Origin: a virus
DNA length: 36,220 nt
Virus record (IMG/VR): IMGVR_UViG_3300045988_159601
Coordinates: 1-36,220 of that record
Reading direction: 5' to 3' (one strand)
A program made the translations under genes and the position numbers. The notes under the pieces are model-generated. The model had not been told where the DNA came from. It was given only the letters and a program-made list of their open reading frames with translations, and made no database searches. Shown piece by piece: positions 120 to 35,454 of this stretch. Position 1 is the first letter of the stretch. Each line of letters begins with the position of its first letter.

Positions 120-1000
120 CACCCCGCCCGAACGGCCTAGCTGACCTGTGGCCGGAACTGTACCTGCTGGACGGTGGCCGGAGACTGGGCCGCACACTCA
201 CCCAGTTCCGGCGGGACTACCTGCTGCCCGACAAGTCCAACGGGCCTATCGTGTACAGCTACCGGCCCAGGCCTGGGGCGGAAGAAGAGGTCTACGGCCT
301 TATTTCTGATATATGTATGTCGATAAAAAAGGAAGACGTGATTTCCCTTCCAGGCCAAACCTACCATGACATTCTGCTACCCGCCCCGCCCGATCTAATG
401 AGGCAATACAGACAGTTTGAGCGGGAGCAGGTGATGGAGTGCATGGACGGAGACGGGCAGATCGTGGCCACGTCCGCCGCTACGTTGAGTAACAAATTGT
501 TACAGTTTGCGAATGGGGCTATCTACGATACCGACGGACAGACGCACAGCATCCACGCCCTGAAACTGGAAGCCCTGGAAGAGCTGGTAGAACGTGCGGG
601 CGGGGACAGCGTGCTAGTGCTGTACAGCTACAAACACGATGCCGAACGAATCCGGCGGCGCATACAGTGCCGGACGTTGGACACTCCGGCGGACATAGAG
701 GCGTGGAACCGGGGAGAAATCCCCGTAGCCCTGGCCCACCCGGCCAGCATCGGGCACGGGCTAAATCTGCAATACGGCGGGCATATCATTATCTGGTTCG
801 GCCTGCCGTGGAGCCTTGAGCTGTACCAGCAGGCTAATGAGCGGTTAAACCGCCCAGGACAGCAGAACGTGTGCCATGTGTACCATCTCATGCTAGCCGG
901 TACGCACGACAGCCGGGTACTAAAGGCCCTACAAGATAAGGACTTCGGACAAGCCGGGGCACTGGAGGCGCTACGCCTGGAAATCACGAAGGGGGGATAA
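2..1000 (+). CDS. SNF2/DEAD-like helicase, C-terminal part. The 5' part is 35746..36220; the full gene is about 451 aa across the circular junction.
   Basis: The reading frame is continuous with 35746..36220 through the 119-nt overlap (position 2 = 36103, in frame with ATG 35746). Helicase C-terminal type sequence (LVLYSYKHD..., IPVALAHPASIGHGLNLQ, NRPGQ). Stop at 998..1000. Confidence 0.85.
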   Translation, partial: KFPIVVIDELSSFKSAQAKRWKALKQVRRRMRRVIELTGTPRPNGLADLWPELYLLDGGRRLGRTLTQFRRDYLLPDKSNGPIVYSYRPRPGAEEEVYGLISDICMSIKKEDVISLPGQTYHDILLPAPPDLMRQYRQFEREQVMECMDGDGQIVATSAATLSNKLLQFANGAIYDTDGQTHSIHALKLEALEELVERAGGDSVLVLYSYKHDAERIRRRIQCRTLDTPADIEAWNRGEIPVALAHPASIGHGLNLQYGGHIIIWFGLPWSLELYQQANERLNRPGQQNVCHVYHLMLAGTHDSRVLKALQDKDFGQAGALEALRLEITKGG

Positions 1001-1001
1001 T

Positions 1002-1460
1002 ATGCCTTTTACCAAGGAGGAACTGGCTGCCATGGCAGCAGCGGACGCAGAGATCGAGCGTGATTTTTGCATGGACCTGGAAGAGCGCCGAGCGGCCCAC
1101 GAGAGAGATGACGAGGCAGACAGCCGGAAACGGCCCGGTCGGGACGCTAGGCGGCGAGAATATTCCCGGCGGTACAAAGCCAGGAACAAAGCCGAGCTAG
1201 CACGCAAAAAACAGGCGGAAAGGGCTGCTTGGTCTCCCGAAAAACGAGAGCAAGAGCTGATAAAGCAGCGGGAGAGATACCGCCGAAACCGTGAGGAACG
1301 GCTGGCCTACCAACGGGCGTATGACGCGGCGCACAAGGACCAAATAACGGCCCGGAAAAAGGCCAAAAAAGAGAGGGAGAAAAAACAGGCTGAGGGGATG
1401 CAGGTAACGAAATCAGGGTCCAACTGGACCCTAAGCGGAATGAGGGGGACGGACGAATGA
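1002..1460 (+). CDS. Hypothetical, highly charged Arg/Glu/Lys-rich protein (152 aa)
   Basis: The ATG is 2 nt after the helicase stop, with a G-rich SD (aaggggggataat) upstream. Internally repetitive RR-EY-RRY-ARN / RERYRRNRE segments. No family recognised. Confidence 0.6.
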   Translation: MPFTKEELAAMAAADAEIERDFCMDLEERRAAHERDDEADSRKRPGRDARRREYSRRYKARNKAELARKKQAERAAWSPEKREQELIKQRERYRRNREERLAYQRAYDAAHKDQITARKKAKKEREKKQAEGMQVTKSGSNWTLSGMRGTDE

Positions 1461-1732
1461 GGCAGAAACCACGCCGGGACCGGGACGCTATCATCCCCTA
1501 CCGGGAGCGAATCTTGCTCTTGGCAAAAATCCTGTACAATGAGACCGACAGGGACAACCCGGTAACATTAACGGAGTTGTTGGACGTGCTTGACACGAAT
1601 TTTGGTAGGGGCGCAAAACGGGCCACTTTGCAGGCCGACATTAAGGCCATTAGTGAAACGTTATTCCCCGTTAACTACTATTACATGCGGGACCACGGAT
1701 ACGGATATTACAGAGAGGATGGAGATAAATAA
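1457..1732 (+). CDS. Hypothetical small protein (91 aa), possible winged-helix regulator
   Basis: ATGA start/stop overlap with the upstream gene and TAATG overlap with dcd indicate translational coupling. The function call is a weak impression only. Confidence 0.55.
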   Translation: MRQKPRRDRDAIIPYRERILLLAKILYNETDRDNPVTLTELLDVLDTNFGRGAKRATLQADIKAISETLFPVNYYYMRDHGYGYYREDGDK

Positions 1733-2262
1733 TGCTCACAGGAAACGAAATCAGATTGCAAGTGGAGTCTAAGCGGCTCGTGATCGAGCCGTTCGACCCC
1801 GCCTGTATCGGCCCCAACAGCTACGACGTGCATTTAGCCCCGGACATGTTTGTCTACCGGGAGCCGGTGCTCGACACCCGCCGGGAGAACCGGGGCCGGT
1901 CGTTCCGCATCCCGGATGAGGGACTGGTACTCCAACCCGGTACGCTGTACCTGGGTGCTACCGTGGAGACCACGGAGTGCATAGATTTAATCCCTATGTA
2001 TGAGGGCCGCTCTAGCATGGGGCGATTGGGACTGTTCAGCCACATCACCGCCGGATTCGGGGACGTGGGCTTCCGGGGCCGCTGGACGTTGGAGTTGGCA
2101 GTAGTTCAGCCCGTGCGGATATACGCCGGTATGCGTATCGGGCAGCTGTCGTTCTATCGCCCGGACGGGGAGATACTGCAACAGTACACCGGGAAATATC
2201 AGGACCAGGTAGGCGCAACGGCAAGCCGCGCATACCGTGATCGAGAGTGGGGGTTGGACTAA
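1732..2262 (+). CDS. dcd: dCTP deaminase (dCTP deaminase/dUTPase superfamily)
   Basis: 176 aa with the characteristic segments NSYDVHL, LQPGTLYLGATVE, YEGRSSMGRLGL, HITAGFGDVGFRGRWTLEL and MRIGQLSF. Confidence 0.85.
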   Translation: MLTGNEIRLQVESKRLVIEPFDPACIGPNSYDVHLAPDMFVYREPVLDTRRENRGRSFRIPDEGLVLQPGTLYLGATVETTECIDLIPMYEGRSSMGRLGLFSHITAGFGDVGFRGRWTLELAVVQPVRIYAGMRIGQLSFYRPDGEILQQYTGKYQDQVGATASRAYRDREWGLD

Positions 2263-2402
2263 TGCAGGGCGCTAAATACCGGCTGTGCCGTAAGTGTGGC
2301 CAGCGTTGGAACGTGTCGGCGCTGGAACCGGGAGAACGGGTGTATATCTGCCCGGTCTGTGACTGGAAAGCCCGCCGGGAACGGCGGGCGCGGGAGGTGT
2401 AA
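2262..2402 (+). CDS. Small zinc-ribbon protein (46 aa), below the ORF-track size cutoff
   Basis: The ATG overlaps the dcd stop (TAATG). Translation is MQGAKYRLCRKCGQRWNVSALEPGERVYICPVCDWKARRERRAREV, with two CxxC pairs and a basic tail. The TAA at 2400..2402 is followed by a GGGAGG SD for the next gene. Confidence 0.55.
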   Translation: MQGAKYRLCRKCGQRWNVSALEPGERVYICPVCDWKARRERRAREV

Positions 2403-2405
2403 GCT

Positions 2406-2738
2406 GTGGAACTGTTGGTAGTCAACGGTTGGGCGCGTATCGTGTACCGCCCGGAAGATTTTGAGGCGTTAATCCGTGAGAACATGGGTGATGATGCAGC
2501 CGCCTATTTCCGCCGCTTTTATGTGCAGTTGGGGGAGAAATCCGCTCAGGAACGCGAGTTAGTGCAGGCGGATTTAGACTACATGATGGAGGAATTGGGG
2601 CAGAACTCCGGAGCGTTCCGGGAAATCTATGACACTGTGGAGAAAATTCGTGCGCTATTCAGTCAGCCCCGCACCCGCTGGAAAGCCATTAAAGGGCTGG
2701 TGGACAGCATTGGATATGTGGCAGTAGATTATATGTAA
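2406..2738 (+). CDS. Hypothetical protein (110 aa, GTG start)
   Basis: ORF with a GGGAGG SD 8 nt upstream of the GTG, in the same tightly packed operon. Confidence 0.55.
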   Translation: MELLVVNGWARIVYRPEDFEALIRENMGDDAAAYFRRFYVQLGEKSAQERELVQADLDYMMEELGQNSGAFREIYDTVEKIRALFSQPRTRWKAIKGLVDSIGYVAVDYM

Positions 2739-2751
2739 TAGGAGGTACAGC

Positions 2752-3108
2752 ATGGACAACAAAAAATTCAATACCCTGGTGGATGAGCTTCGGACTGCTA
2801 GCATCGACACGCTGGCCGCGAAAAATGCAAAATACGCAGGCTATTCGGGGGATGCTCTCCATAATTTCCGGGAGGGTGCGGCTTTTACCGGGGATACCAC
2901 AGCACAAACCTGCTGGGGTTACATGGCGAAACACCTGGTAGCCCTGCATGATATGGTGATTCTCAACCGATTTGATGATCGAGAGGATTTTCTGGAGAAG
3001 TGCAAAGACACGGTAAACTACCTGTGTATCCTGTGGGCTATTGGCAACGAACAGCGGGAAATCGCACAAATGGCCCTGAATTGGGAGAAGGAAGAGACGA
3101 AAGAATAA
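2752..3108 (+). CDS. Hypothetical all-alpha protein. Tentatively DUF1599/Nmad1-like (nucleotide-modification-associated) or DUF3310-like.
   Basis: 118 aa with an AGGAGG SD upstream. Pattern AKNAKYAG...ALHNF...KHLVAL...DTVNYLCILWAI resembles those families from memory. Needs an HMM check. Confidence 0.6.
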   Translation: MDNKKFNTLVDELRTASIDTLAAKNAKYAGYSGDALHNFREGAAFTGDTTAQTCWGYMAKHLVALHDMVILNRFDDREDFLEKCKDTVNYLCILWAIGNEQREIAQMALNWEKEETKE

Positions 3109-3116
3109 AAGCCAAA

Positions 3117-3138
3117 GGCCGGGGACTATTCCCCGGCC
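3117..3138. terminator. Bidirectional rho-independent-type hairpin at the convergence of the plus early operon and the minus HTH gene
   Basis: ggccgggga-ctat-tccccggcc: 9-bp GC stem. T-rich run downstream on the plus strand (tcttcttc) and on the minus strand (tttggcttttattctttc). The right arm overlaps the last codons of the minus HTH gene. Confidence 0.6.
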
Positions 3139-3338
3139 TCTTCTTCGTCCACATATTCCATTAAATCACCTGGTTGGCAGTTCAGCAGCTTACAGAGTTT
3201 GTCGATGGTCACCGTCTCAAACCCGCCCGTGCCATTCAACGCCTTTGCTATGATGGTTGGGCTGATACCGGCTTTTCTCAGCCGGTATTTAGCTCCACGC
3301 TCTTCGAGCTTCGCCTTAAATCCGTTGTAGGTAATCAT
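3126..3338 (-). CDS. Small Cro/C1-type (HTH_26-like) DNA-binding protein, 70 aa
   Basis: MITYNGFKAKLEERGAKYRLRKAGISPTIIAKALNGTGGFETVTIDKLCKLLNCQPGDLMEYV has the typical HTH pattern. The ATG at 3338 overlaps the upstream stop (TAATG). The longer track ORF start (3401) would overlap the upstream gene. Confidence 0.75.
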   Translation of the reverse strand: MITYNGFKAKLEERGAKYRLRKAGISPTIIAKALNGTGGFETVTIDKLCKLLNCQPGDLMEYVDEEEAGE

Positions 3339-3700
3339 TAGCACACCGCCAATTCTGTTTTGAGCTGTACCAGCGTTTCTGTGTCTACCGATTCCGGCCA
3401 TACTGCGGCTCGGCGGACCTGGGCGCTGAACCGCTTAACCCTGGCCAGCCGCTCTCTTTCTTCGGGCGGTCTCACCGTCTCTATTTCGTCCCAGTCCAGC
3501 TCTTCAGGGTCCATGCTGGATTCAAAATCCAGTACGTTTGTAAAATCCAGGCCCAGGATGAGCGCCCCCTGCAACAGGGCCGGGTCAAGGTGGCCTTCCC
3601 GGTAGGTCAGTACTTCCCCATCGTCAAAAGTCACGGTCGTGATAACTAACCGCCGGGGTTCCGTCTCGCGGATTTCGCTCTTAACAGCTACGAGTTTCAT
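3338..3700 (-). CDS. Acidic hypothetical protein (120 aa), first gene of a two-gene moron
   Basis: The start at 3700 was chosen because the AGAAAGGA SD lies 8 nt upstream, as in five paralogous leaders. The track N-terminal extension (to 3820) coincides with promoter sequence. Strong excess of D/E residues. Confidence 0.65.
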   Translation of the reverse strand: MKLVAVKSEIRETEPRRLVITTVTFDDGEVLTYREGHLDPALLQGALILGLDFTNVLDFESSMDPEELDWDEIETVRPPEERERLARVKRFSAQVRRAAVWPESVDTETLVQLKTELAVC

Positions 3701-3751
3701 AGTGTCCATCCTTTCTGCCTTTCGGCTGTCCGTCTCCTTTACTGTGCCTTT

Positions 3752-3780
3752 ATTGTATACCAGCTTATACAGAATTGCAA
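3752..3780 (-). promoter_or_regulatory. Sigma70-like promoter of the acidic-protein/HTH operon
   Basis: Minus strand reads TTGCAA, 17 nt, TACAAT. About 80 nt of promoter plus leader is near-identical to 24096..24176. Confidence 0.5.
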
Positions 3781-3835
3781 CAGGCAGACTGTACAAAAAC
3801 AAGTACACCGCTTTGTGCAACCCGAAAAGAAAAAA

Positions 3836-3857
3836 CCCACCGGGTTTAGCCGGTGGG
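3836..3857. terminator. Bidirectional terminator hairpin ending the minus-strand late (lysis) operon
   Basis: cccaccgg-gtttag-ccggtggg, flanked by an A run upstream and cttt ctttt downstream. On the minus strand it is followed by ttttttcttttc. Confidence 0.7.
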
Positions 3858-3944
3858 CTTTCTTTTGCTGAAAAACGGGACTTTCGAGTGGTCCATATTC
3901 ATTATATCACTGGGCGCTCGAATCGTCAAGCGTTTTACCATGAC

Positions 3945-4730
3945 TTACTTGAGCAGCCCCAAACGGCCCAGCACAGCGGCCAGCTCATCCCGTTTGACAG
4001 GGCGCTCCGGCCCCGTGCCGTCCATGATACCGCGATGCTTCAGGCCCTGGAAAGCGCCCTCTTTTTTCGACCACTCAGGCTCCGGCAGGTTGTCGGCGTA
4101 GGCCATGGCCTCAGCTACGATAGCATAGCACATTTCAGGGGTGAGCTGCTCGACGATCTTCTTGATGTCCATATCGTTTTCCTCTCTGCCCGCAAGACGG
4201 GCGTTTACCTGCCCGGCAATCCACGGATGCAGGTTGTACAGGTAGTCCCCAGGACACACCTTGTCCGTTCGCGTCCAACGGTGTACCACCATGTTCTGCG
4301 CGGCCCAATTACCCATCAAATCCCGCCGTCCGTGCCACAGCAGCGCTTTAATACCGTTCCGCTGGCAGATGTCGGTCAGCAGGTCGAGCAGGGCAGACAG
4401 GGCTTTGTCCGTCACCCGGTTAGGCGCGTCAATGTCGCTTGCCACCTCAATAGATACTATTTGATGGTCAATCGGGTTTGACGTACACCATGCCCGATCC
4501 GATTCAGGCACGACTAAGGCAATGGACCCGTCCCCACCTACCGCATAGTTGCAGGAAGCACCATTTTTCCGGTCGTAGGTGGTAAACCGGCCCAGGTCCG
4601 CCGTATCCCGTGCGCGTTTGTTCCGTCCGCCCGCGGTGCAGTGGATAGCCACGCCCCGGATGACGCCGTTCCGGGGGCTTGTGCGGTTCGGAGAGATACG
4701 GGTATAGGTTACGAGTTTACTGTTGCTCAT
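3945..4730 (-). CDS. Endolysin: N-acetylmuramoyl-L-alanine amidase (Amidase_2/PGRP type) with an SLH-like C-terminal segment
   Basis: N-terminal IHCTAG...YAVGGDG...AWCTSN...IEV pattern of amidase_2. Located directly after the holin. AGAGG SD. Confidence 0.85.
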   Translation of the reverse strand: MSNSKLVTYTRISPNRTSPRNGVIRGVAIHCTAGGRNKRARDTADLGRFTTYDRKNGASCNYAVGGDGSIALVVPESDRAWCTSNPIDHQIVSIEVASDIDAPNRVTDKALSALLDLLTDICQRNGIKALLWHGRRDLMGNWAAQNMVVHRWTRTDKVCPGDYLYNLHPWIAGQVNARLAGREENDMDIKKIVEQLTPEMCYAIVAEAMAYADNLPEPEWSKKEGAFQGLKHRGIMDGTGPERPVKRDELAAVLGRLGLLK

Positions 4731-4923
4731 TTTGTTTTACCTCTGGCAGTCCTGCAACGCTGGTCAGCAGGGAGATGATACCGGCCAGCACCGTAGCGGA
4801 CAGTACAACCGGCCAGTCAACGGCGGACAGTACAGCCGCCGCGCCGATGCAGGCGATTGCGGTCTGTGCCATAGTCCGCACGGCCCGAACAAGCGCAGCT
4901 TTTAACCAAGCCTTGTTAATCAT
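4717..4923 (-). CDS. Holin (LL-H / phi LC3-like, 68 aa)
   Basis: KAALVRAVRTMAQTAIACIGAA plus a second hydrophobic helix and a charged C-terminus. GGAGG SD. Overlaps the endolysin start. Confidence 0.75.
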   Translation of the reverse strand: MINKAWLKAALVRAVRTMAQTAIACIGAAAVLSAVDWPVVLSATVLAGIISLLTSVAGLPEVKQNEQQ

Positions 4924-4928
4924 AGGTA

Positions 4929-5249
4929 TTACCTCCTATCTATCGGAAGTTCTTCGATTTCTGCTATTACAGTGTCAAGGTGGCCGTTACCACCCAGAGC
5001 TTTGTAATTTTTGTGCATTTCAAGTAAGGTTTCCTTGTCTGCAAGACTAATACTTCCCTTATTGATATAACACTGCCCCAAATAGCGCACACGGTCAACC
5101 ATCATAATTTTCTGGGCTGATACCAAGGCTGTTAAACGGTCATCCTCCCTGTCCTTCTTTGTCCAATATCTATTGAGCAGGGCTACGATGATAGCAGACA
5201 GCCCGCCGCCACCGAACGCGGCTAAAATGAGTTGCGCGATAGTATCCAA
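4929..5249 (-). CDS. Membrane protein with one N-terminal TM helix (106 aa, TTG start). Possible lysis accessory protein.
   Basis: The hydrophobic N-terminus ILAAFGGGGLSAIIVALL is followed by a charged soluble domain. Lies immediately upstream of the holin. Confidence 0.6.
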   Translation of the reverse strand: MDTIAQLILAAFGGGGLSAIIVALLNRYWTKKDREDDRLTALVSAQKIMMVDRVRYLGQCYINKGSISLADKETLLEMHKNYKALGGNGHLDTVIAEIEELPIDRR

Positions 5250-5279
5250 ATAGAATACCTCTCTATCTAATGTTCTGTA

Positions 5280-5729
5280 TTAGTTTTGTACCTCTTCCCA
5301 CCCAGCCGGGTAGGCATCCGGGGCATAGACGTTATTGGCAATTTTTGACCGGTAGGTCTTTCCGGAATAGGTACAACAGTCCCCAATGCCGTAGGGGCTG
5401 GTAGATAAGGCTACGAATGGTAGGGCTTTCGCGGGGTCGGTGGACCACTTAAACCCCCACTGAGCGGGTAGCTCTTCCGGCTCCTGTGTGTATACGCTGC
5501 TGTCGTAGGGCTGCAACAGAACAACAACACGCCCAGCGGTGGAACGGCAGACAAACCCGGCGGAACGGGTAGACATATTTTTCAGGGCTACGGCGCTCTT
5601 GAACGCCGGAATTTTATCCGTCTCAGCGTACAACTCCGTACCAGTCAGCGCAGAGGCCCGATCTTGCAGGTCTTTAGCATCTGCAAGGCCCTTCTCACGC
5701 ATTGCGGTAAAATAGATAGACTCAGTCAA
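5280..5729 (-). CDS. Tail-fibre-region protein with a possible carbohydrate-binding (CBM5/12-like) C-terminus
   Basis: 149 aa. C-terminal GDCCTYSGKTYRSKIANNVYAPDAYPAGWEEV resembles the aromatic-rich chitin-binding-type motif (from memory). Confidence 0.55.
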   Translation of the reverse strand: MTESIYFTAMREKGLADAKDLQDRASALTGTELYAETDKIPAFKSAVALKNMSTRSAGFVCRSTAGRVVVLLQPYDSSVYTQEPEELPAQWGFKWSTDPAKALPFVALSTSPYGIGDCCTYSGKTYRSKIANNVYAPDAYPAGWEEVQN

Positions 5730-23511: not shown

Positions 23512-23584
23512 AGTTATCTTCCTTTCTGGCCGGGCTTGTGACCGGCCTGCCGCATTACCGGGGCCGAAGCCCCGTCACTCTGCG
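23512..23584 (-). repeat. Structured intergenic element, copy A
   Basis: Minus strand: cgcagagtgac-CGGGGC-ttcg-GCCCCG-gtaatgcggca-GGCCGG-tcacaagc-CCGGCC-agaaaggaagataact. Confidence 0.8.
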
Positions 23585-23789: not shown

Positions 23790-23865
23790 TTTTATCTTCC
23801 TTTCTGGCCGGGGTTGTGACCGGCTCTCCCGCATTACCAGAGGCTTGCGCCCCTGTCACTCTGCG
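23790..23865 (-). repeat. Structured intergenic element, copy B
   Basis: Minus strand: cgcagagtgac-AGGGGC-gcaa-GCCTCT-ggtaatgcgggaga-GCCGG-tcacaacc-CCGGC-cagaaaggaagataaaa. The TGA stop of the upstream gene lies within it. Confidence 0.8.
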
Positions 23866-24409: not shown

Positions 24410-25483
24410 CTATTCGTCTTTTTCGTCGCTGACCGGATTTTGACACAAATACCGATTTAGCTTGTCAGCCGTGGCCTGTTTGCGGCTCTGCATGATGTGG
24501 GTATATATGTTCATCGTGGTTCTTATATCGGAGTGCCCTAGTAACGTTTGCATTTCCTTTACCCCGACACCCGCATCATATAGCACGGTTGCATAGAAGT
24601 GCCTCAGCTGGTGGGTAGTTACTGCCGTACCCCGGCCCCGTGTACCTACGCCTACCGATATGCACCACGTCCGCCACGCGCTCTTAAATTGGCTCAGGCG
24701 TAACAGTTCCCCGGTAGGGCCAGGGAATACTAGTCCCTGTTTCCGGTCTCCTAGCAGGGCGTCCAGCGGGGCAGGAATAACTACGTCTCGCACTCCCTGC
24801 GCCGTTTTGGGCGGCTTGGTGTGTGGAGCCTCACCGATAAACTGCACGGCCCGTCTAACGTGTATCACCCCCGCGGCCCGGTCGAAATCTTCCCATTGGA
24901 GAGCTAGTATCTCTCCCCGGCGCATGCCTGTATACCCTTCCAGCGCCGCGAACAAACCGAACGGCAGGCGAAACCCTGCCCCGATCATTGCTAATTGCTC
25001 AGGCGTGGGCGGCTCTCTGGTTCCGGCTGGTAGGCCCTTGGGCATTTTGGATTGCCGGGCCACGTTGTACCTCACAATCCGTTTTCCGATTGCGTAGTCC
25101 CACGTCTGAGTTAATACATCCCGCCGCCGCTGGACTGTCCAACGGGTGTATCCACGGGCCGCGATAGCCTGTAAGAACTCCGTGATCTCATCCGGGTATA
25201 TGTCCCCGATCTCCCGGCCCTGAAACCACTGTAACACGTCCCGCACGGCGGGCGCATAGTTTCCCCACGATGTGGCCTCAACCTCTTCTCTGTGCCGTTC
25301 TGCCCACTGCTCGACGATGGTACACAGCTGCATAGCCTGCGCCTGTTCCTGCTCTCGCTCCATGCTCCATGTGGCTAGCTTCCGCTGCACCTCTCGCTGT
25401 GTCCGCCCGTAGAAATATTTGGGCCGTTCCATCCCCGGCAGCTTCACTTGCTCTTGCCAGCGTCCGTCCTTCCGTTTTATCAT
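24410..25483 (-). CDS. int: Tyrosine recombinase / phage integrase
   Basis: 357 aa. C-terminal HQLRHFYATVLYDAGVGVKEMQTLLGHSDIRTTMNIYTH (R..H.R.Y catalytic pattern) and an N-terminal SAM-like domain. Confidence 0.9.
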   Translation of the reverse strand: MIKRKDGRWQEQVKLPGMERPKYFYGRTQREVQRKLATWSMEREQEQAQAMQLCTIVEQWAERHREEVEATSWGNYAPAVRDVLQWFQGREIGDIYPDEITEFLQAIAARGYTRWTVQRRRDVLTQTWDYAIGKRIVRYNVARQSKMPKGLPAGTREPPTPEQLAMIGAGFRLPFGLFAALEGYTGMRRGEILALQWEDFDRAAGVIHVRRAVQFIGEAPHTKPPKTAQGVRDVVIPAPLDALLGDRKQGLVFPGPTGELLRLSQFKSAWRTWCISVGVGTRGRGTAVTTHQLRHFYATVLYDAGVGVKEMQTLLGHSDIRTTMNIYTHIMQSRKQATADKLNRYLCQNPVSDEKDE

Positions 25484-28252: not shown

Positions 28253-28657
28253 ATGAACAACCTGAATCTCACTATTGAGCTGTGCGCGGAAGACCGCGCC
28301 CGCCTGGACGCGATTCTCACGGCACTGCAAGCCGTGGGGACACCGTTCAGCCCGCCTGAATCCGCCCAGACCGTCGAGACGGCCCCGGAGACGCACGACA
28401 CGCCCGCCCCCGTAACTGGTGGCCCTGAGCCGGAACAACCCGCACAGGACACGCAGGACGGCGCAGAGACGCAACACGCCACGCATGGCATGGTGCAGGA
28501 CCTGGTGATTACTCTCGCATCGTGGGGCCACAAATCAGAGGCCCGCGAGATCGTCCAGCGGTATGCCCCGCGTGTCTCAGCTATCCCGGACGCAGACCTG
28601 GACGCCGTGTATGTCGCGCTCGACGCGGTACGCCTGGCGCATGAGGGGGAAAACTGA
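28253..28657 (+). CDS. Acidic hypothetical protein (134 aa)
   Basis: AAGGAGG SD. First gene of the replication module. Confidence 0.6.
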   Translation: MNNLNLTIELCAEDRARLDAILTALQAVGTPFSPPESAQTVETAPETHDTPAPVTGGPEPEQPAQDTQDGAETQHATHGMVQDLVITLASWGHKSEAREIVQRYAPRVSAIPDADLDAVYVALDAVRLAHEGEN

Positions 28658-28658
28658 T

Positions 28659-29765
28659 ATGGGACACGCAGACCGGGCACATGCCCTTCTTTCCGCCTCT
28701 AGCGCCCACCGGTGGCTGAACTGTCCGCCGTCCGCCGTAGCCGCTGAGTTGTACCCCCGCGAGAGCAGCGAGTTTGCCGCTGAGGGCACTCTGGCCCATG
28801 AGGTGGCGGAGGCCGTGGTACGGGGCATCCCCCCGGAGGGCAACCCTGAGATTACCCAGGAGATGCTAGACTGTGCCGCTGGGTACAAAGGCTACATCTG
28901 GGAGCAGACCAACGGAGAGGATTATCACCTGCTGCTAGAGCAGAGAGTGGATTTCTCCGACTGGGTCCCCGGCGGGTTTGGTACCTGCGACTGCATCCTG
29001 TTGCAGGGCGATACCCTGGACGTGATCGACTACAAATACGGTAAGGGAGTACCTGTTAATGCGGTGTGCAACCCGCAACTCATGCTGTACGGCCTGGGCG
29101 CCCTGAACGACTACGGCCTAGCCGTGGACGTGCAGACCGTGCGCCTGCACATCTATCAGCCCAGGATTAACAATATCAGCACCTGTGAGGTACCCACCCA
29201 AGACCTGCTCAAATGGGCGGACAGTGTGCGAGAGATTGCCGCTGTTGCCGCTCAGGGCGGCGGGGAGTACCACGCCGGGGACTGGTGCAAATTCTGTCCC
29301 CACGCGGGAGAGTGCAGGGAGCTGACCCAGACCTGTACCCGTCTGGTGGACAGGTACAACGTGGAGGTCACCGTTTTGGCCCCCTATGAGGTAGCCCAAA
29401 TCCTGGAGCAGGAGCCGCTTATCTCTCTGTGGCTCAGACGGGTAAAAACCCGCGCCCTGGCCATGGCCCTGAATGGTAAGCCCGCCCCCGGTTGGAAAGC
29501 CGTTGAGGGTAGACAAGGCAATCGGAAATGGAAGGATGAGCTGGAAGCCCTGCACATCCTCGACGCGGCGGGCTACGACCGGGCCGAAACTACTGAGACC
29601 CACCTACTCAGTCCCGCTGGTGTTGACAAACTGGTGGGCAAGAAAAAGGCCGCTGAACTGTTGGCGGGCCAGATCGAGCGGTCCCCCGGTGCGCCTATCC
29701 TGGTACCGGAGAGCGACAAACGCCCACCATACGACCCCGCGAACGACTTCGACAATATTGATTAA
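28659..29765 (+). CDS. DUF2800-type PD-(D/E)XK (Cas4-like) nuclease
   Basis: The ATG at 28659 overlaps the previous TGA region. SASSAHRWLNCP, DVIDYKYGKG and a C-terminal Cys cluster CKFCPHAGEC. Confidence 0.8.
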   Translation: MGHADRAHALLSASSAHRWLNCPPSAVAAELYPRESSEFAAEGTLAHEVAEAVVRGIPPEGNPEITQEMLDCAAGYKGYIWEQTNGEDYHLLLEQRVDFSDWVPGGFGTCDCILLQGDTLDVIDYKYGKGVPVNAVCNPQLMLYGLGALNDYGLAVDVQTVRLHIYQPRINNISTCEVPTQDLLKWADSVREIAAVAAQGGGEYHAGDWCKFCPHAGECRELTQTCTRLVDRYNVEVTVLAPYEVAQILEQEPLISLWLRRVKTRALAMALNGKPAPGWKAVEGRQGNRKWKDELEALHILDAAGYDRAETTETHLLSPAGVDKLVGKKKAAELLAGQIERSPGAPILVPESDKRPPYDPANDFDNID

Positions 29766-29779
29766 AGGAGACCTATACT

Positions 29780-30343
29780 ATGAGTGTAAAAATTATGCTG
29801 CGTAACGTGCGCCTGAGCTATGAGCACATCTTCACCCCAACCGCGTTTGACGATAGTCAGGATGCAAAGTATTCCGCGACGTTCATCATCCCCAAGGAAC
29901 ACACGGACCTCGACAAGGTCAAGGCCGCTTTCCGTGCCGCCGGTGCGGACAAGTACCCCAATTCCTTCAAGGGCACCGAGTGGCCGAAGGGTTTCACTTG
30001 CAGTCTCAAGGACGCAGACGTGCAGACCGACAGCATGGGTGAGCTGCTGGCAGAAAAGAATCCCGCTTATGCCGGTTGCTACATTCTGGAGGCCAACAGC
30101 ACCCGCCGCCCTGTTGTCGTGGGCCGTCGGAAAGAGGCCCTGACCGCTGAGGATGGAGTGATCTATTCTGGGTGCTATGTCAACGCATCCCTGGCCGCTG
30201 CGCCCTACGAGTACGGCAAAGTTAAGCGGGGCGTGAAAGCCTACCTGAACGGTGTGCAGTTTGTCAAGGACGGTGAGCGGTTCGGAACGGACGCGCTGAG
30301 CGACTTCGATGACCTGGAAGATGACGATGACTTCACGAACTGA
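29780..30343 (+). CDS. DUF2815-type phage single-stranded DNA-binding protein
   Basis: 187 aa. N-terminal LRNVRLSYEHIF and an acidic C-terminal tail DFDDLEDDDDF. Confidence 0.8.
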   Translation: MSVKIMLRNVRLSYEHIFTPTAFDDSQDAKYSATFIIPKEHTDLDKVKAAFRAAGADKYPNSFKGTEWPKGFTCSLKDADVQTDSMGELLAEKNPAYAGCYILEANSTRRPVVVGRRKEALTAEDGVIYSGCYVNASLAAAPYEYGKVKRGVKAYLNGVQFVKDGERFGTDALSDFDDLEDDDDFTN

Positions 30344-33074
30344 GCCGTCCCGGCGGTTAGTGCTGGACTTAGAGACGTTTTCCAGCGCTGACCTGCCCCG
30401 TGGCGGGGTAAAAAAATACACGGAAGCGCCGGACTTCGAGATTCTTCTCATGTCCTACGCTTGGGATGGTGGGCCGGTGCAACTGTGGGATTTCACCCAG
30501 TACGGCCCGCCGGACTGGTTGGCCCCCGTACTCGTGGACCCTGCATTTACTAAAATCGCCTGGAACGTATCATTTGAGCGGAACTGTCTCAACGCGGCCC
30601 TGGGCATCTATACCCCGCCCGAACAGTGGCGGGACGCTATGACCCTGGCCGCTATGAACGGCCTGCCTATGTCGCTGGACGCGGCGGGCGCGGCCCTGCA
30701 ACTCCAACAGCAGAAACTCGCTATCGGTAAAGCCCTTATCCGGTATTTCTGCACACCGTGTAAGCCCACGATTTCAAATAAGGGCCGAACTCGTAACCTG
30801 CCCGAACACGCCCCGGACAAGTGGGAGCAGTTCAAGGAATACTGTTTGAGGGATACCGTTGTTGAGCAAACCATATACGACCGGTTAGCGTCGTTCCCCG
30901 TCCCCGAATGGGAGCGCCGGTTAGAGGCATTGGACGCCCACATAAACGAAAGGGGCGTGCTGGTGGACATGGAACTAGCCGAATCCGCCGTAGCGCTCGA
31001 CGAACGGTCCCGCGCTCAGAACGTGGCAGAGATGCAGGCAATCACCGGGCTGGATAACCCCGGAAGTGTGGCCCAGCTCAAGGCGTGGCTCTCCACTAAA
31101 AACGTCAACGTGGCCAGCCTGAACAAGGCCACCGTGTCCGAATTGTTGGACACTGTGACAGACCCAGCAACCCGCCGGGTGCTGGAATTGCGACAGCTGA
31201 CCGGCAAAACGTCTACCAAAAAATACCAGGCTATCCTAGACGCGGCCTGTGCAGACCACCGAATCCGTGGCCTGCTCCAATACTACGGAGCGGCCCGGAC
31301 TGGGCGGTGGGCCGGGCGGCGGGTACAGCTGCAAAACCTGGCACAGAACCATCTAGAGAATATCGGCACTGTGAGAGAGTTAGTCCGTGCCCGCGACCTG
31401 GAGACCCTAGAGCTTGCCTATGACAGCGTGCCTGACGTACTGTCTCAGCTCATCCGCACTGCCCTGATAGCCAAACCGGGGCACACGTTCCTGGTGGCGG
31501 ACTATTCGGCGATTGAGGCCCGCGTCGTGGCGTGGATGGCCGGGGAGCAGTGGCGGATGGATGTTTTCGCCCAGGGTGGGGACATCTATTGCAGCTCTGC
31601 CTCTCAGATGTTCCATGTGCCCGTCGTAAAACACGGCGTAAACGGTCACTTGCGCCAAAAGGGCAAGATCGCGGAGCTGGCTTGTATCGCTGAGGGACAA
31701 TTAGTGCTAACCGATACCGGCCTAGTGCCTATCGAGCAGGTGACAACGGACCATCTCGTATGGGATGGGATAGAGTGGGTAAACCATGACGGCGTTGTTT
31801 GCCGTGGAGAACGGGAGGTAATCAGTTATGGGGGATTGGAGGCGACAGCGGACCACCTCGTATGGGCCACGCTCGACGGGAACAGTGGGCCGGTACAGTT
31901 CGGAGACGCCGCCACCAGCGGCGCACATCTCTTACAAACCGGAACAGGTAGGAACCCGGTTCGGGTGGGTGACGATCATCGACCCGGAAAAACGATGGAA
32001 CAAGAGCTGGAACCATTGTTACGTCCTGACCCGGTGCAACGGTTGCGGACGGGAACAATGACAGTATCTGGACAACCTGAGAAGCGGAAAATCCAAAGGC
32101 GGCCAGAGTTGTTCTCAGCGTCGAGCGGTTCCCCGTTGGTTGGACCGGCGTTTTACGGCGGCAAAACAGCGTTGCGAGAATCCGAAGGATACGAATTACA
32201 AGAACTACGGGGCACGGGGGATACAGTTTCGGTTTCCGAGTGTGACAGACGCCGCTATTTACATGATCGAGACGAACGGGCTTCCAGACCGGAGTTTAGA
32301 GCTGGACCGGATAGACGTAAACGGCCACTACGAGCCGGGCAATCTGAGATGGGTAACACACCAACAGAACTGCCAGAACCAACGCCGATTTCTGGAAAAG
32401 TGAGAGTGTACGATATCCTGAACGCGGGGCCGCGTCACCGATTCACCGTATCCGGGGTTCTGGTTCATAACTGCGGTTACGGCGGCGGTGTAGGCGCGTT
32501 GAAAGCGTTTGGTGCAGACAAAATGGGCCTGTCGGAGGATGAAATGCAAACCATCGTCCAGCATTGGAGACGGGCATCTCCTACTATCCCCCGTTTCTGG
32601 TCTGCGACCGAGCGGGCCGCCCGGTCTGCGCTGGCCCACCCCGGCAAAACGTTTTCCGTCCAGCCCTGCGGGGTGAAATACCGCCGGGACGCGGACGCCC
32701 TGCGGTGTAAGCTGCCCAGCGGGCGTATCCTGTCGTACTGGGGCGCGAACATAGGCCCAGACGGACACCTGTATTACATGGGCCAGAACCAGACTACTAG
32801 AAAATGGGAGCGGACGGAGACATGGGGCGGCAAACTGGTAGAGAACATCGTCCAGGCCGTGGCCCGTGACTGTCTGGCCGTTGCCCTGCTTCGGCTTGAT
32901 GATGCTGGTTTTCAAACACTATTCACCGTCCACGATGAGGTAATAGTGGAGGAACCACAGGGACGCAGGACATGGCAGGACGTGGCCGAAATCATGGGCC
33001 AACCCATTGACTGGGCACCAGGTCTGTTGTTACGCGGGGACGGCTACGAGACACCATTTTATATGAAGGACTGA
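30309..33074 (+). CDS. Family-A DNA polymerase (3'-5' exo + pol) containing an intein. The start could be 30309, 30321 or 30327.
   Basis: ExoI LVLDLETFS, motif A LVADYSAIEARV, motif B KGKIAELA/CGYGGG interrupted by the intein, and motif C FTVHDEV. Confidence 0.9.
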   Translation: MTWKMTMTSRTEPSRRLVLDLETFSSADLPRGGVKKYTEAPDFEILLMSYAWDGGPVQLWDFTQYGPPDWLAPVLVDPAFTKIAWNVSFERNCLNAALGIYTPPEQWRDAMTLAAMNGLPMSLDAAGAALQLQQQKLAIGKALIRYFCTPCKPTISNKGRTRNLPEHAPDKWEQFKEYCLRDTVVEQTIYDRLASFPVPEWERRLEALDAHINERGVLVDMELAESAVALDERSRAQNVAEMQAITGLDNPGSVAQLKAWLSTKNVNVASLNKATVSELLDTVTDPATRRVLELRQLTGKTSTKKYQAILDAACADHRIRGLLQYYGAARTGRWAGRRVQLQNLAQNHLENIGTVRELVRARDLETLELAYDSVPDVLSQLIRTALIAKPGHTFLVADYSAIEARVVAWMAGEQWRMDVFAQGGDIYCSSASQMFHVPVVKHGVNGHLRQKGKIAELACIAEGQLVLTDTGLVPIEQVTTDHLVWDGIEWVNHDGVVCRGEREVISYGGLEATADHLVWATLDGNSGPVQFGDAATSGAHLLQTGTGRNPVRVGDDHRPGKTMEQELEPLLRPDPVQRLRTGTMTVSGQPEKRKIQRRPELFSASSGSPLVGPAFYGGKTALRESEGYELQELRGTGDTVSVSECDRRRYLHDRDERASRPEFRAGPDRRKRPLRAGQSEMGNTPTELPEPTPISGKVRVYDILNAGPRHRFTVSGVLVHNCGYGGGVGALKAFGADKMGLSEDEMQTIVQHWRRASPTIPRFWSATERAARSALAHPGKTFSVQPCGVKYRRDADALRCKLPSGRILSYWGANIGPDGHLYYMGQNQTTRKWERTETWGGKLVENIVQAVARDCLAVALLRLDDAGFQTLFTVHDEVIVEEPQGRRTWQDVAEIMGQPIDWAPGLLLRGDGYETPFYMKD
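31683..32471 (+). mobile_element. Intein (263 codons) in motif B of the DNA polymerase
   Basis: Starts CIAEGQLVLTDTGLVPIEQV (block A). Has GGLEATADHLVW (block B, TxxH). Ends RVYDILNAGPRHRFTVSGVLVHN, followed by a +1 Cys (CGYGGG). Confidence 0.85.
31828..32403 (+). pseudogene. HNH_3-like homing-endonuclease reading frame nested in the intein in the +1 frame, interrupted by one TGA (32059..32061)
   Basis: GGGAGG SD at 31813..31818, then ATG 31828. The frame reads ...VGTRFGWVTIIDPEKRWNKSWNHCYVLTRCNGCGREQ*QYLDNLRSGKSKG...FTAAKQRCENPKDTNYKNYGARGIQF...SLELDRIDVNGHYEPGNLRWVTHQQNCQN. Confidence 0.7.
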
Positions 33075-33078
33075 TTAA

Positions 33079-35454
33079 ATGGGACTAACACATGACCGAC
33101 CCCTTGCTATTGCTACCGGTAACAGCCGGAAAACCAAGAGCTGGAAAAATGTATCAATGCCGTGGGGGGAACTGTTGGCCCGCCTGTCCAGCACCGTCCG
33201 CACCCCCGAAACCGTTGCTGAGTACAAGGCGGCAAGCCGGGACCGGCAGGCCGAAATTAAGGACGTCGGTGGGTTTGTCGGTGGGTACTGCCCGAACGGG
33301 CGGCGGGTAGACGTTGAGAGTCGAGCGGTGCTGTGCCTGGACGCCGATTATGCAGATGCCACCCTGTGGGAGGATTACTGTAATTTAATCGTCCGCGCCG
33401 GGGCGATATACAGCACGCACAAACACACCCCGAACAATCCGCGGCTGCGCCTGGTGATACCACTGGCCCGCGACGTGTCCCCGGATGAGTACCAGGCCAT
33501 AGGCCGCAAGATAGCCGATATTCTGGGCATCGACAAGTTTGACGATACCACATACCAGCCTGAGCGGCTTATGTACTGGCCTAGTACGAGCCGGGACGGA
33601 GAGTATGTATTCCACAGCTATGACGCGCCGTTTCTGAATCCCGATGACGTGTTAGCCCTGTATCGGGATTGGCGTGACGTGTCCGCCTGGCCCATGTCCA
33701 GCAGGCAGGCGGGCATAGTCCGCCGGGCCGCGAAGAAACAGGCTGACCCGCTGGACAAGCCCGGCCTAGTCGGCGCATTTTGCAGGGCGTATAGCATCCG
33801 GGATGCTATCGCGGTATTCGTCCCGGAGTATGAACCTTGTGACGTGCCTAACCGGTACACCTACACGGGCGGCTCAACGGCGGCGGGAGTTATTATCTAC
33901 GATGATAAATTTTCGTTTTCGCACCATGCCACCGACCCGGCCAGCGGCCAGTTATGCAACGCTTGGGACCTGGTTCGTATCCATAAATACGGCCCGCTGG
34001 ACGATGATACAGACCCGGACACCCCGGCCAATCAACGGCCCAGCTACAAGGCCATGTGCGACTATGCCAGCGATGACAGCCGGGTAAAGGCCCAGATTCT
34101 GGAAGACCGCCGAGCAGAGTTGGACGCATTCGACACGCTGGACGCTCCGGGCAGTTCACCCACCCAGGCATGGACAGACAAGTTGAAAATGACGGACAAG
34201 GGGGTACTGGTGCAGTCCATCGAAAACACTGTAACGGTGCTATCCAACGACCCCGATCTAGTGGGCTGCGTGGCCCTGAACGAACTGCAAAACAATATTG
34301 TAGCTGTGAAACGGCTTCCGTGGCGGGACGTAGGCAGAGAAAGCCCCTGGGTAGACGCGGACGATGCACAGTTGCGCCTATACCTAGAACAGTGTTACGG
34401 GCTAACCAGCAGGGACAAAATCTTCGACGCGGTGAACGTGGTCGCACAGGTCAACCGGTTCCACCCTATCCGGGACTACCTGGACGGATGCAAATGGGAC
34501 GGTGTGCCCCGCGCGGATACCCTGCTCGTGGACTACCTGGGCGCAGAGGATACCGAGTACACCCGCGCCGTGACCCGCAAAACCCTGGTTGCAGCTGTGT
34601 CCCGAATCTATAACCCTGGTTGTAAATTCGACTACATGTTGACCTTACAGGGGCGGCAAGGCCTGGGCAAATCCGCCATTATTGCCAAACTAGGCGGGCC
34701 GTGGTACTCCGACACGCTGACCACGGTAACGGGCAAAGAGGCCTATGAGCAGCTGGTGGGCGTGTGGATTATGGAGGTTGGTGAGTTGGCCGGTATGCGT
34801 ATCGCAGAGAGCAACGCGGTAAAACAGTTTATCTCTAAGGCGTCTGACCGGTACCGCCCCGCATACGGGCGGCGCATCCAGGATTTCCCCAGGCAGTGCA
34901 TTTTTATCGGCACCACGAATGAGATGCAGTTCCTTCGGGACAGCACTGGTAACCGCCGTTTCTGGGTGGTGGCCACACCCAACGACCCGGCCTGTGACAT
35001 GTGGACAGACCTGGACGCTGAGACGGTAAAGCAGGTATGGGCAGAAGCCCGCCACTACTACCAGGCGGGAGAGACGTTGTACCTGTCCCGCGAGCTGGAA
35101 GAGCAGGCGCAGGCTGTGCAGGAAGGGTTTGAAGAGGAAGACCCCCACGTTGGCCTTGTGGCCGAGTTTTTGGAGCGCCTACTCCCCCCGGACTGGAAGG
35201 ACCGGGACCTGTTCGACCGGCGGCAATGGCTGGAATCAGGCGCGGTTGGTACCGTCCAGCGTGAAACAGTCTGCACCGCTGAGATTTGGGCGGAAGCCCT
35301 GGACGGGGACCCCCGGAAATTCGACCGCTACGCCGGTATGAAAATCCGGGCCATTATGAGCAAACTGCCGGGTTGGCGGTCCTGCGGGAACCTGAAAATC
35401 GTCGTAAAGCCCTACGGGCGTCAACGGTATTTCAAACGGAAGGGGGTGTTGTGA
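33079..35454 (+). CDS. Primase/helicase: N-terminal primase-like domain + VirE-family P-loop NTPase
   Basis: 791 aa. Walker A QGRQGLGKSA, and RYRPAYGRRIQDFPRQCIFIGTTNE...GNRRFWVV typical of VirE (PF05272-like). Confidence 0.85.
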   Translation: MGLTHDRPLAIATGNSRKTKSWKNVSMPWGELLARLSSTVRTPETVAEYKAASRDRQAEIKDVGGFVGGYCPNGRRVDVESRAVLCLDADYADATLWEDYCNLIVRAGAIYSTHKHTPNNPRLRLVIPLARDVSPDEYQAIGRKIADILGIDKFDDTTYQPERLMYWPSTSRDGEYVFHSYDAPFLNPDDVLALYRDWRDVSAWPMSSRQAGIVRRAAKKQADPLDKPGLVGAFCRAYSIRDAIAVFVPEYEPCDVPNRYTYTGGSTAAGVIIYDDKFSFSHHATDPASGQLCNAWDLVRIHKYGPLDDDTDPDTPANQRPSYKAMCDYASDDSRVKAQILEDRRAELDAFDTLDAPGSSPTQAWTDKLKMTDKGVLVQSIENTVTVLSNDPDLVGCVALNELQNNIVAVKRLPWRDVGRESPWVDADDAQLRLYLEQCYGLTSRDKIFDAVNVVAQVNRFHPIRDYLDGCKWDGVPRADTLLVDYLGAEDTEYTRAVTRKTLVAAVSRIYNPGCKFDYMLTLQGRQGLGKSAIIAKLGGPWYSDTLTTVTGKEAYEQLVGVWIMEVGELAGMRIAESNAVKQFISKASDRYRPAYGRRIQDFPRQCIFIGTTNEMQFLRDSTGNRRFWVVATPNDPACDMWTDLDAETVKQVWAEARHYYQAGETLYLSRELEEQAQAVQEGFEEEDPHVGLVAEFLERLLPPDWKDRDLFDRRQWLESGAVGTVQRETVCTAEIWAEALDGDPRKFDRYAGMKIRAIMSKLPGWRSCGNLKIVVKPYGRQRYFKRKGVL

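Follow-up and report, generated by a model that had tools for sequence, protein, structure and literature searches.

A motif-B intein of a phage family-A DNA polymerase and its overlapping, out-of-frame gene for a predicted HNH-type nuclease

DNA polymerase I is among the bacterial proteins that host inteins (Novikova et al., PMC4760082), and canonical HNH-containing inteins, as the work of Dalgaard et al. (1997) is cited in 10.1101/2025.01.02.630785, carry the HNH nuclease as an in-frame domain. Other arrangements of splicing domain and nuclease have been described as well. In fractured genes, a free-standing homing endonuclease gene is found between the halves of a split intein, and such invasion has been proposed as a route by which inteins gain endonucleases (Dassa et al. 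2009, PMC2677866). Furthermore, a hidden, out-of-frame HNH open reading frame (ORF) has been reported in a mycobacteriophage DNA methylase gene (ShiLan; Arsenault et al. 2025, PMC11855218). Inteins with an endonuclease encoded in another frame were reported in a 2025 preprint by Gosselin et al. (10.1101/2025.01.02.630785), which describes an endonuclease VII-like ORF "in frame 3" of actinophage inteins, as well as antisense LAGLIDADG and Vsr-like cases. Here we report on IMG/VR virus record IMGVR_UViG_3300045988_159601 (positions 1 to 36,220; this whole stretch of 36,220 nucleotides is referred to as the window), in which motif B of a family-A DNA polymerase is split by an intein whose DNA also contains, on the same strand and in the +1 frame, a gene for a predicted HNH-type nuclease.

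The element is probably a mobile class-1 intein that consists of two overlapping same-strand genes, one for a Hint splicing domain and one for a nuclease, of which the nuclease has been inactivated in the window. In the polymerase frame, an N-terminal Hint part of approximately 96 amino acids and a C-terminal part of approximately 30 amino acids would be joined by a disordered peptide of approximately 137 amino acids, and the Hint domain would excise 263 amino acids and ligate ...AELA to CGYGGG, restoring motif B. The +1 frame would encode a separate HNH-type nuclease of 191 amino acids that starts inside the Hint-N DNA and ends just before Hint-C. This nuclease would most likely cut intein-free polymerase alleles, after which the whole element would be copied in (homing); its candidate target is formed by the codons of intein-free polA for ...KVAELALGYQGG (e.g., gene L of SPO2).

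The intein and its insertion site

The polymerase ORF matched Pfam DNA_pol_A with an expectation value (E) of 2.6e-20, and the polymerase is approximately 49% identical to those of phages SPO2, Emery, and LWP01. In its frame, positions 31683..32471 translate into 263 stop-free codons, starting with CIAEGQLVLT, containing EATADH (with T55 and H58), and ending with GVLVHN. The class-1 signature from which the original prediction had proposed an intein, i.e., Cys1, T55xxH58, the terminal His-Asn, and the +1 Cys, could thus be recovered completely in the ORF translation, and the insert is flanked by polymerase motif A (LVADYSAIEARV) and motif C (VHDEV) as that prediction had claimed. Alignment (MAFFT) with two polymerases that lack the intein, those of Bacillus phage SPO2 (648 amino acids) and Brevibacillus phage Emery, revealed a single clean gap at the insert: both phages read ...RQKGKVAELA/LGYQGG, with the slash at the insertion site, and there was no gap other than that of the insert of 263 (or 309) amino acids, so that the proposed bounds in motif B were right. 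In the same alignment the +1 residue is Leu in the empty alleles and Cys in the occupied alleles, a change that is exactly what splicing requires. Moreover, relatives of Hint-N are encoded in 246 IMG/VR stretches and 124 GTDB-representative stretches, which argues that the insert is not a product of chance.

Among 19 family members, C1, T55, H58, H262, N263, and the +1 Cys are invariant. The single-sequence AlphaFold2 prediction of the intein was uninformative (a pLDDT, or predicted local distance difference test score, of 39), and a model based on a 36-row alignment was used. In this model, residues 1-90 and 237-264 form a beta-rich domain at a pLDDT of 93-97, and residues from approximately 105 to 230 remain below 50. 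Essentially all of the top 50 listed PDB matches of this model in Foldseek are inteins or Hint domains, including 6zgq (the best, E 6.5e-4), 4kl5, 6frg, 2in8, and 1at0, and the names of the matches include AceL NrdHF, Npu DnaE, Ssp DnaB, Mtu RecA, gp41-1, and Hedgehog. The insert thus has both the class-1 sequence signature and the predicted Hint fold of an intein, and its intact catalytic residues within that fold suggest that it would perform protein splicing. The coordinates of the intein, its parts, and the surrounding genes are summarized in Table 1.

Table 1. Features of the polymerase locus and its surroundings in the window
Feature	Position	Strand	Basis or remark
Tyrosine integrase gene	24410..25483		
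DUF2800/PD-(D/E)xK gene	28563..29765		
Enc34-type single-stranded DNA-binding protein (DUF2815) gene	29780..30343		
Family-A (SPO2-type) DNA polymerase precursor, 921 amino acids including the intein, TGA end	30309..33074	+	ORF; Pfam
N-extein, C-terminal end ...LRQKGKIAELA (first half of motif B/O-helix), includes motif A	30309..31682	+	
Intein in polymerase frame, 263 codons, Cys1...His262-Asn263	31683..32471	+	Clean insertion; predicted Hint fold
Hint-N part (blocks A and B; C1, T55, H58)	31683..31970	+	Invariant residues, predicted fold, codon-position variability
Shine-Dalgarno-like GGGAGGT, 9 nucleotides between GGAGG and ATG (31828), within conserved Hint R-E-V codons	31813..31819	+	
Nested predicted nuclease gene, 191 codons, +1 frame, HNH-type with four-Cys motif	31828..32403	+	PHROG, homologues, codon-position variability; pseudogene here
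Polymerase-frame "linker" (approximately amino acids 97-233)	31971..32381	+	No family match, predicted disordered, no amino acid conservation, stop-free only
Premature TGA at nuclease Trp78 (TGG in relatives)	32059..32061	+	Polymerase frame reads T-M-T, silent in effect
GGC (Gly) for nuclease Cys92 of the C70/C73/C92/C95 motif	32101..32103	+	
Hint-C part (blocks F and G: VYDILNAGPRHRFTVSGVLVHN)	32382..32471	+	Invariant residues, predicted fold, codon-position variability
+1 Cys of C-extein, then GYGGG (second half of motif B)	32472..32474	+	Leu in intein-free homologues
VapE-like protein gene	33079..35454		

A predicted nuclease gene nested in the intein DNA

The product of the +1 frame matched four PHROG families that are labelled HNH endonuclease (E 3.2e-12 to 1.8e-24), the best being phrog_374 "HNH endonuclease" (E 1.8e-24) in an alignment that spans the single in-frame TGA, and gave a marginal match to phrog_1035 "endonuclease VII" (E 9.7e-4); Pfam returned no match for the window's +1-frame product. 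A search of 5.8 billion proteins yielded 423 called proteins that are homologous to the nested nuclease. The best 120 of these are ORFs of 139-321 amino acids, mostly of 191, 257, or 270 amino acids, predicted by gene callers on short contigs, and most of them cover 97-100% of the query when this is started at the candidate ATG. The product of 31828..32403 is 95% identical to an intact homologue (P0065), and many free-standing homologues in phages carry the label HNH endonuclease. Across 112 distinct nested nucleases, C70, C73, C92, and C95 constitute a near-invariant four-Cys motif, and the family shares a D160-R161-I-D...N172...N184 motif and an invariant YG-RGI motif. In the window, D160-R161 is encoded at 32305..32310.

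The coding frame could be followed along the insert by nucleotide entropy per codon phase. Over insert nucleotides 1-170 it is the third position of the polymerase frame that is variable; from approximately nucleotide 180 to approximately 690 or 860 it is the third position of the +1 frame, after which the pattern returns to the polymerase frame, and in the overlap with Hint block B the variability of all three codon positions is depressed. The GC content at third codon positions (GC3) amounts to 0.66-0.71 for the polymerase frame in the exteins, and in the central segment to 0.63 for the +1 frame versus 0.45 for the polymerase frame. Similarly, the mean pairwise amino acid identity of the central segment is 0.66 in the +1 frame and 0.33 in both the polymerase frame and the non-coding +2 frame, with a value of 0.71 for Hint-N in the polymerase frame. 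Neither the insert nor the linker of the window had a Pfam match in the polymerase frame, and the equality with the non-coding +2 frame indicates that no selection acts on the polymerase-frame linker at the protein level. The implication of the original prediction that the 263 amino acids form one intein protein with an internal domain does not hold: what the polymerase frame yields in the middle is a meaningless translation of DNA that encodes a nuclease in another frame, and no in-frame endonuclease of the canonical bifunctional type is located between blocks B and F.

The polymerase frame is nevertheless kept open through the nuclease gene. In this overlap, a stop in the polymerase frame arises only where a nuclease codon that ends in T precedes a codon starting with AA, AG, or GA, and such stop-creating NNT codons were encountered at 2 of 6,288 at-risk positions, versus 29% T elsewhere. 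When the nuclease was shuffled over synonymous codons, the mean probability of an open polymerase frame was 0.007, and 0.004 for the window. Selection purges those codon pairs of the nuclease gene that create stops in the polymerase frame, as ribosomes that make the polymerase have to pass through the nuclease gene.

The start of the nuclease gene lies within the Hint sequence ...REVI(S/T)Y(G/E)G..., where its ATG consists of the Tyr codon TAT and the G that follows. Of 114 long alleles, 105 have this ATG, and the Tyr codon at the start site is TAT in 92%, versus 54% TAT in the upstream extein. In most alleles, GAGGT or GGAGGT is found approximately 8 nucleotides 5' of the ATG, and a stop that closes the +1 frame precedes it by one or two codons (codons 45-46). 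Judged from these signals in the DNA, the nested nuclease is most likely made by internal initiation on the polymerase messenger RNA, and the conserved ATG, the Shine-Dalgarno spacing, the TAT bias, and the upstream +1 stop favor such initiation over frameshifting.

Conservation, mobility and decay of the element

Using an alignment of the N-terminal Hint part, 80 of the 246 IMG/VR loci and 80 of the 124 GTDB species-representative loci were retrieved, and these 160 scan loci were classified together with the window and three further loci (L001-L003). The GTDB loci are prophages in Anaerococcus, Gardnerella, Centipeda, Selenomonas, Ruminococcus callidus ATCC 27760, Megasphaera, Acetobacterium, Streptococcus, Corynebacterium, Brevibacillus, and others. 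Long inserts of sharply conserved length, either 927 or approximately 789 nucleotides (the class of the window), were found in 135 loci. Without exception the nuclease occupies the +1 frame of these loci, and the polymerase frame is open in 133 of the 135 (114 of 115 distinct sequences). In nearly all of the 115 distinct inserts the +1 ORF is open from approximately codon 46, to codons 239-244 in the 789-nucleotide class and to codons 290-318, often past the splice junction, in the 927-nucleotide class. The 115 sequences with this +1 offset were derived from isolates, metagenome-assembled genomes, and viromes, including complete RefSeq chromosomes, and no version with an in-frame nuclease was found among the classified loci. 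Moreover, a distant PolA clade (L167 and L168), which has the classical LGIMYGMG motif B, displays the same +1 layout and an open polymerase frame, with an intact nuclease at an identity of only 38-41%. Another 23 loci contain mini-inteins of 360-471 nucleotides (120-157 amino acids), which are only suggestive of nuclease deletion, as the +1-frame pieces that they kept overlap Hint-coding or adjacent conserved frame-0 sequence.

In several pairs of loci the inserts are 93-99.9% identical at the nucleotide level, versus 68-71% for the distal N-extein, with 99.9% for the intein and 71% for the distal N-extein of L023 and L099 as an example. Such near-identical inteins in diverged polymerases point to ongoing homing of the composite element.

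Several loci deviate from the common layout. In the 927-nucleotide class, the nuclease (257-284 amino acids, e.g., L003 261..1188) has an extra C-terminal domain, and its ORF runs through the Hint-C coding DNA and often 5-10 codons into the C-extein, so that the splicing domain is overlapped at both of its ends. A single allele, at 4598..5387 of an ENA contig (L002, ERZ21549425), combines an intact nuclease with a closed polymerase frame; it contains two stops in the linker, and gene calls gave an N-fragment of 362 and a C-fragment of 238 amino acids. This allele may be either a split intein in the making ("fractured gene") or a polymerase that is dead. In a JGI contig (L001, 3300002168; 1254..2180), the insert of 926 nucleotides has a nuclease that is frameshifted midway and a broken polymerase, with the polymerase frame running into the nuclease frame, which represents either decay or sequencing error. 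Two identical IMG/VR loci (L058 and L059; insert from 2486/3525) hold a long allele with a Hint-C part that is cut after ...KAGVYDIP and a stop, followed by unrelated sequence, and are either truncated or disrupted copies or the result of a second insertion. Two stand-alone "Hint-C + C-extein" proteins (P0052 and P0056) were considered as split inteins and rejected, since their contigs begin inside the intein and show no stop in the polymerase frame up to the contig edge. Likewise, P0071 (321 amino acids) is not an in-frame fusion, as it is a mis-assembled ORF with internal duplications.

In the window, the nuclease gene carries two lesions at positions that are each 99% conserved among the 112 distinct nested nucleases, i.e., W78 and C92 (Table 1). 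The nearest DNA relatives, L004 and L005 (93% and 92% identical at the nucleotide level), have TGG at the first and TGC or TGT at the second of these sites. Recoding of the TGA or a suppressor tRNA was considered and rejected, as the window contains no tRNA gene and TGA ends the polymerase gene and other genes. Of the differences in the central segment, 20 of 28 relative to L004 and 29 of 38 relative to L005 are at third positions of the nuclease frame, which implies that purifying selection acted on the nuclease until recently. In the window, the splicing residues are intact and the polymerase frame has stayed open. By these sequence features, the window lacks an intact nuclease and its nuclease appears dead through a recent inactivation, and the copy may be regarded as a still-spliceable intein without mobility, in the decay phase of the homing cycle. 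A homing cycle that includes such a decay phase is an established model.

The gene content around the polymerase bears out the replication-module neighbors that had been described for it, encoding DUF2800 and DUF2815 proteins. The presence of a tyrosine integrase gene in the window implies that the source is a temperate phage or prophage. Adjoining this integrase gene, two Twister-P5 ribozymes (Rfam RF02684; 69.6 and 64 bits, E 1e-12 and 3e-11) were detected on the minus strand at 23530..23584 and 23808..23865, approximately 220 nucleotides apart.

Alternative explanations, related systems and significance

Several alternatives to an intein with an out-of-frame nuclease gene were weighed. A canonical bifunctional intein, of which the middle would be an in-frame endonuclease or another folded domain, would account for a polymerase frame that is open over 263 codons and for a length typical of endonuclease-containing inteins. 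It is nonetheless extremely improbable, given that the frame-0 middle has no family match, a low pLDDT, and the identity of a non-coding frame, that by both codon-position variability and GC3 the coding signal lies in the +1 frame, and that natural mini-inteins of 120-157 amino acids exist without any middle. Splicing at the RNA level by a group I intron that carries an HNH ORF deserves as little credence. Phage polymerase genes are known as hosts of such introns (PMC3428280), and the record of Sodalis phage SO-1 (NC_013600) labels a nested HNH coding sequence (CDS; gp39) and the polymerase (gp38) "type I self-splicing intron"; no Rfam intron or ribozyme match was obtained in 31683..32471, however, an intron would not need the open host frame from which stops have been purged (2 of 6,288), and the ends of the insert encode a confidently predicted Hint fold with catalytic residues at the exact junctions. 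It is very unlikely as well that the insert is tolerated unspliced, as a surface loop with a hidden nuclease: the out-of-frame HNH of ShiLan does sit in an open host frame without a splicing domain (PMC11855218), whereas the insert in the window splits the O-helix (motif B) of the polymerase and encodes a conserved Hint domain with invariant C1, T55, H58, H262, N263, and +1 Cys, accompanied by the Leu-to-Cys change at the +1 residue.

A programmed +1 frameshift that would yield an N-extein-HintN-nuclease fusion, or two compensating shifts that would yield an in-frame intein-nuclease, is unlikely. Both frames are open over a long overlap, in which a shift anywhere in approximately 31828-31970 would be productive, and the translation mechanism of the hidden HNH is left open in the ShiLan paper (PMC11855218), while the conserved ATG, the well-spaced Shine-Dalgarno sequence, and the TAT bias point to ordinary initiation and the +1 ORF is stopped just 5' of the ATG in most alleles. 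Finally, a frame change and an in-frame stop in a single window normally suggest errors, and L001 does have frameshifts, yet a sequencing or assembly artefact in which two indels displaced an in-frame HNH domain is next to inconceivable in view of the same +1 offset in 115 distinct sequences and in the clade at 38-41% nuclease identity, with no in-frame version.

Some observations weigh against the proposed intein with its nested nuclease. The insert of the window itself has no Pfam Hint match at E<=1, comparison of the Hint part with PDB sequences (phmmer and profile searches) was non-significant, with inteins as the top three matches of the family profile at E values of 0.2-0.6, and NCBIfam returned only an intein-containing RtcB model for the insert (E 0.02). 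The original prediction had named the lack of a Hint hidden Markov model hit as a reason to abandon the intein; formally this applies to the window sequence, while Pfam Hint_2 did match two of the 19 close family members (best E 1.7e-4), and the fold evidence overrides the lack of a match in the window. As regards the nuclease, all members have Arg in the place of the catalytic His of HNH_3 (D160-R161), only 7 of 34 members matched Pfam HNH_3, and these weakly (best E 0.013), and phmmer and profile searches found no PDB sequence relative; its identity rests on PHROG annotation, and its activity as a nuclease is therefore a predicted one. The splicing, internal-initiation, and homing steps are ones that we infer, and the related loci share descent, by which the counts of open frames are not independent. 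The latter objection is mitigated by the dicodon statistic, the clade at 38-41% identity, and the occurrence of a second family in another frame.

This second family is found in Jersey-like Salmonella phages (vB_SenS-Ent3, HG934470) and Sodalis phage SO-1 (NC_013600), which, like the window, have an intein in motif B of a family-A polymerase, an open polymerase frame, and a homologous nuclease out of frame (31% identity over 99% of P0065). Their Hint sequence (CLHRHTQVLT...LVAHN) is unrelated to that of the window, their nuclease occupies the +2 frame, and the insertion lies three residues upstream, at RQIGKA/CELGLGYEGG versus AELA/C GY here. The Ent3 annotation (L169 2409..3305) reads "putative intein-containing DNA polymerase precursor", with a 299-amino-acid intein for which "splicing domains" only are given. 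In SO-1 (L170), the polymerase CDS (849..4037) is continuous and the nested HNH endonuclease (2333..3091) bears the intron label, which is very probably a misannotation. In Salmonella phage SAP012 (L171, NC_053008), an unannotated free-standing nuclease homologue at 2501..3058 overlaps the polymerase CDS at its 3' end as well as the beginning of the gene that follows, and may be a free-living relative with the polymerase gene as its target. The helicase gene gp34 of vB_SenS-Ent3 contains an annotated intein with an in-frame LAGLIDADG endonuclease (L169 4760..5654), which means that canonical and out-of-frame architectures coexist in one replication module.

The window element has a same-strand nuclease ORF and an open host frame, and thereby qualifies as an intein with an out-of-frame nuclease. 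Like the inteins of Gosselin et al., it combines a splicing domain in the host frame with a nuclease ORF on the same strand, at the endonuclease site and in another frame, and has an in-frame middle without recognizable structure; the origin proposed for such elements is the invasion of an intein by a free-standing nuclease gene. The differences concern the nuclease, which is PHROG-374/HNH_3-like, with four Cys and in the +1 frame, versus endonuclease VII-like and in frame 3; the hosts, i.e., family-A polymerases in prophages of Bacillota, Actinomycetota, and others, in hundreds of copies, versus actinophages; and the start of the nuclease ORF, which here is inside the Hint block-B coding DNA. 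Fractured genes likewise have a nuclease gene between the Hint N and C parts that overlaps the downstream coding region; their host gene is in two ORFs, their intein acts in trans, and their nucleases are GIY-YIG- or Vsr-like, whereas the host frame of the window is continuous and the host gene is not broken in two. All 133 complete long alleles that came from the two unbiased scans (IMG/VR and GTDB) likewise keep the host frame open, and L002 alone is closed. ShiLan shares the out-of-frame HNH ORF in an insertion that leaves the host frame open; it has no detectable splicing domain and no ribosome-binding site, and a leaderless GTG start has been proposed for it, in contrast to the complete Hint domain, Shine-Dalgarno sequence, and ATG found here. 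In canonical HNH inteins the nuclease is a domain of the same polypeptide, whereas here it is predicted to be a separate polypeptide from another frame.

Literature searches yielded no paper that describes this PolA allele or an out-of-frame HNH within a polymerase intein, and led only to the two papers of the Gogarten laboratory, which concern other systems. The suggestion that the insertion site might be a new intein allele is weak, since the allele is present in many RefSeq and GenBank genomes and phages, where it is labelled only DNA polymerase; known holders include Gardnerella phage vB_Gva_AB1 (MW387018, ORF9) and Streptococcus Javan phages (e.g., Javan101), both with intact alleles that are annotated as a "DNA polymerase" of 967 amino acids. 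Overall, the first interpretation of the locus is partly supported: the intein is real and correctly delimited, but its form is not canonical and it does not represent a new class of host or site. The element is a very widespread variant of an architecture that was recognized only in 2025, and not a new kind.

The broader proposition, on which our confidence is evenly divided, is that the out-of-frame layout is a long-lived arrangement, favored by selection, that lets a free-standing nuclease and a mini-intein move jointly, and that one motif-B-targeting nuclease family has colonised at least two unrelated inteins, the CIAEG type (+1) and the Jerseyvirus/SO-1 type (+2). If true, the layout would have persisted to 38-41% protein divergence without in-frame fusion, with 140-190 precursor codons as stop-free junk, and would be the most widespread example in this analysis of a "splicing-first, nuclease-invades-later" origin of mobile inteins. 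It would also be among the longest conserved same-strand overlaps in bacterial viruses, and a natural case of very long disordered linkers that are tolerated by Hint.

The findings imply an annotation correction, as hundreds of CDSs annotated as "DNA polymerase" hide an unannotated intein and an overlapping nuclease gene. Moreover, the two stop-creating dicodons in 6,288 provide strong statistical support for the recently proposed intein architecture, and the loci offer live intermediates for the hypothesis that mobile inteins arise from free-standing homing endonuclease genes that invade mini-inteins. Cultivable systems, such as Gardnerella phage vB_Gva_AB1, Streptococcus Javan prophages, the Ruminococcus callidus ATCC 27760 prophage, and Salmonella Jersey-like phages, are suited to questions on the translation of the nested gene and on the homing of intein and nuclease as a unit. 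That a Hint domain carries approximately 140-190 residues of essentially random sequence at its endonuclease site is relevant to intein engineering, and the scale and stability of the layout would surprise most intein specialists.

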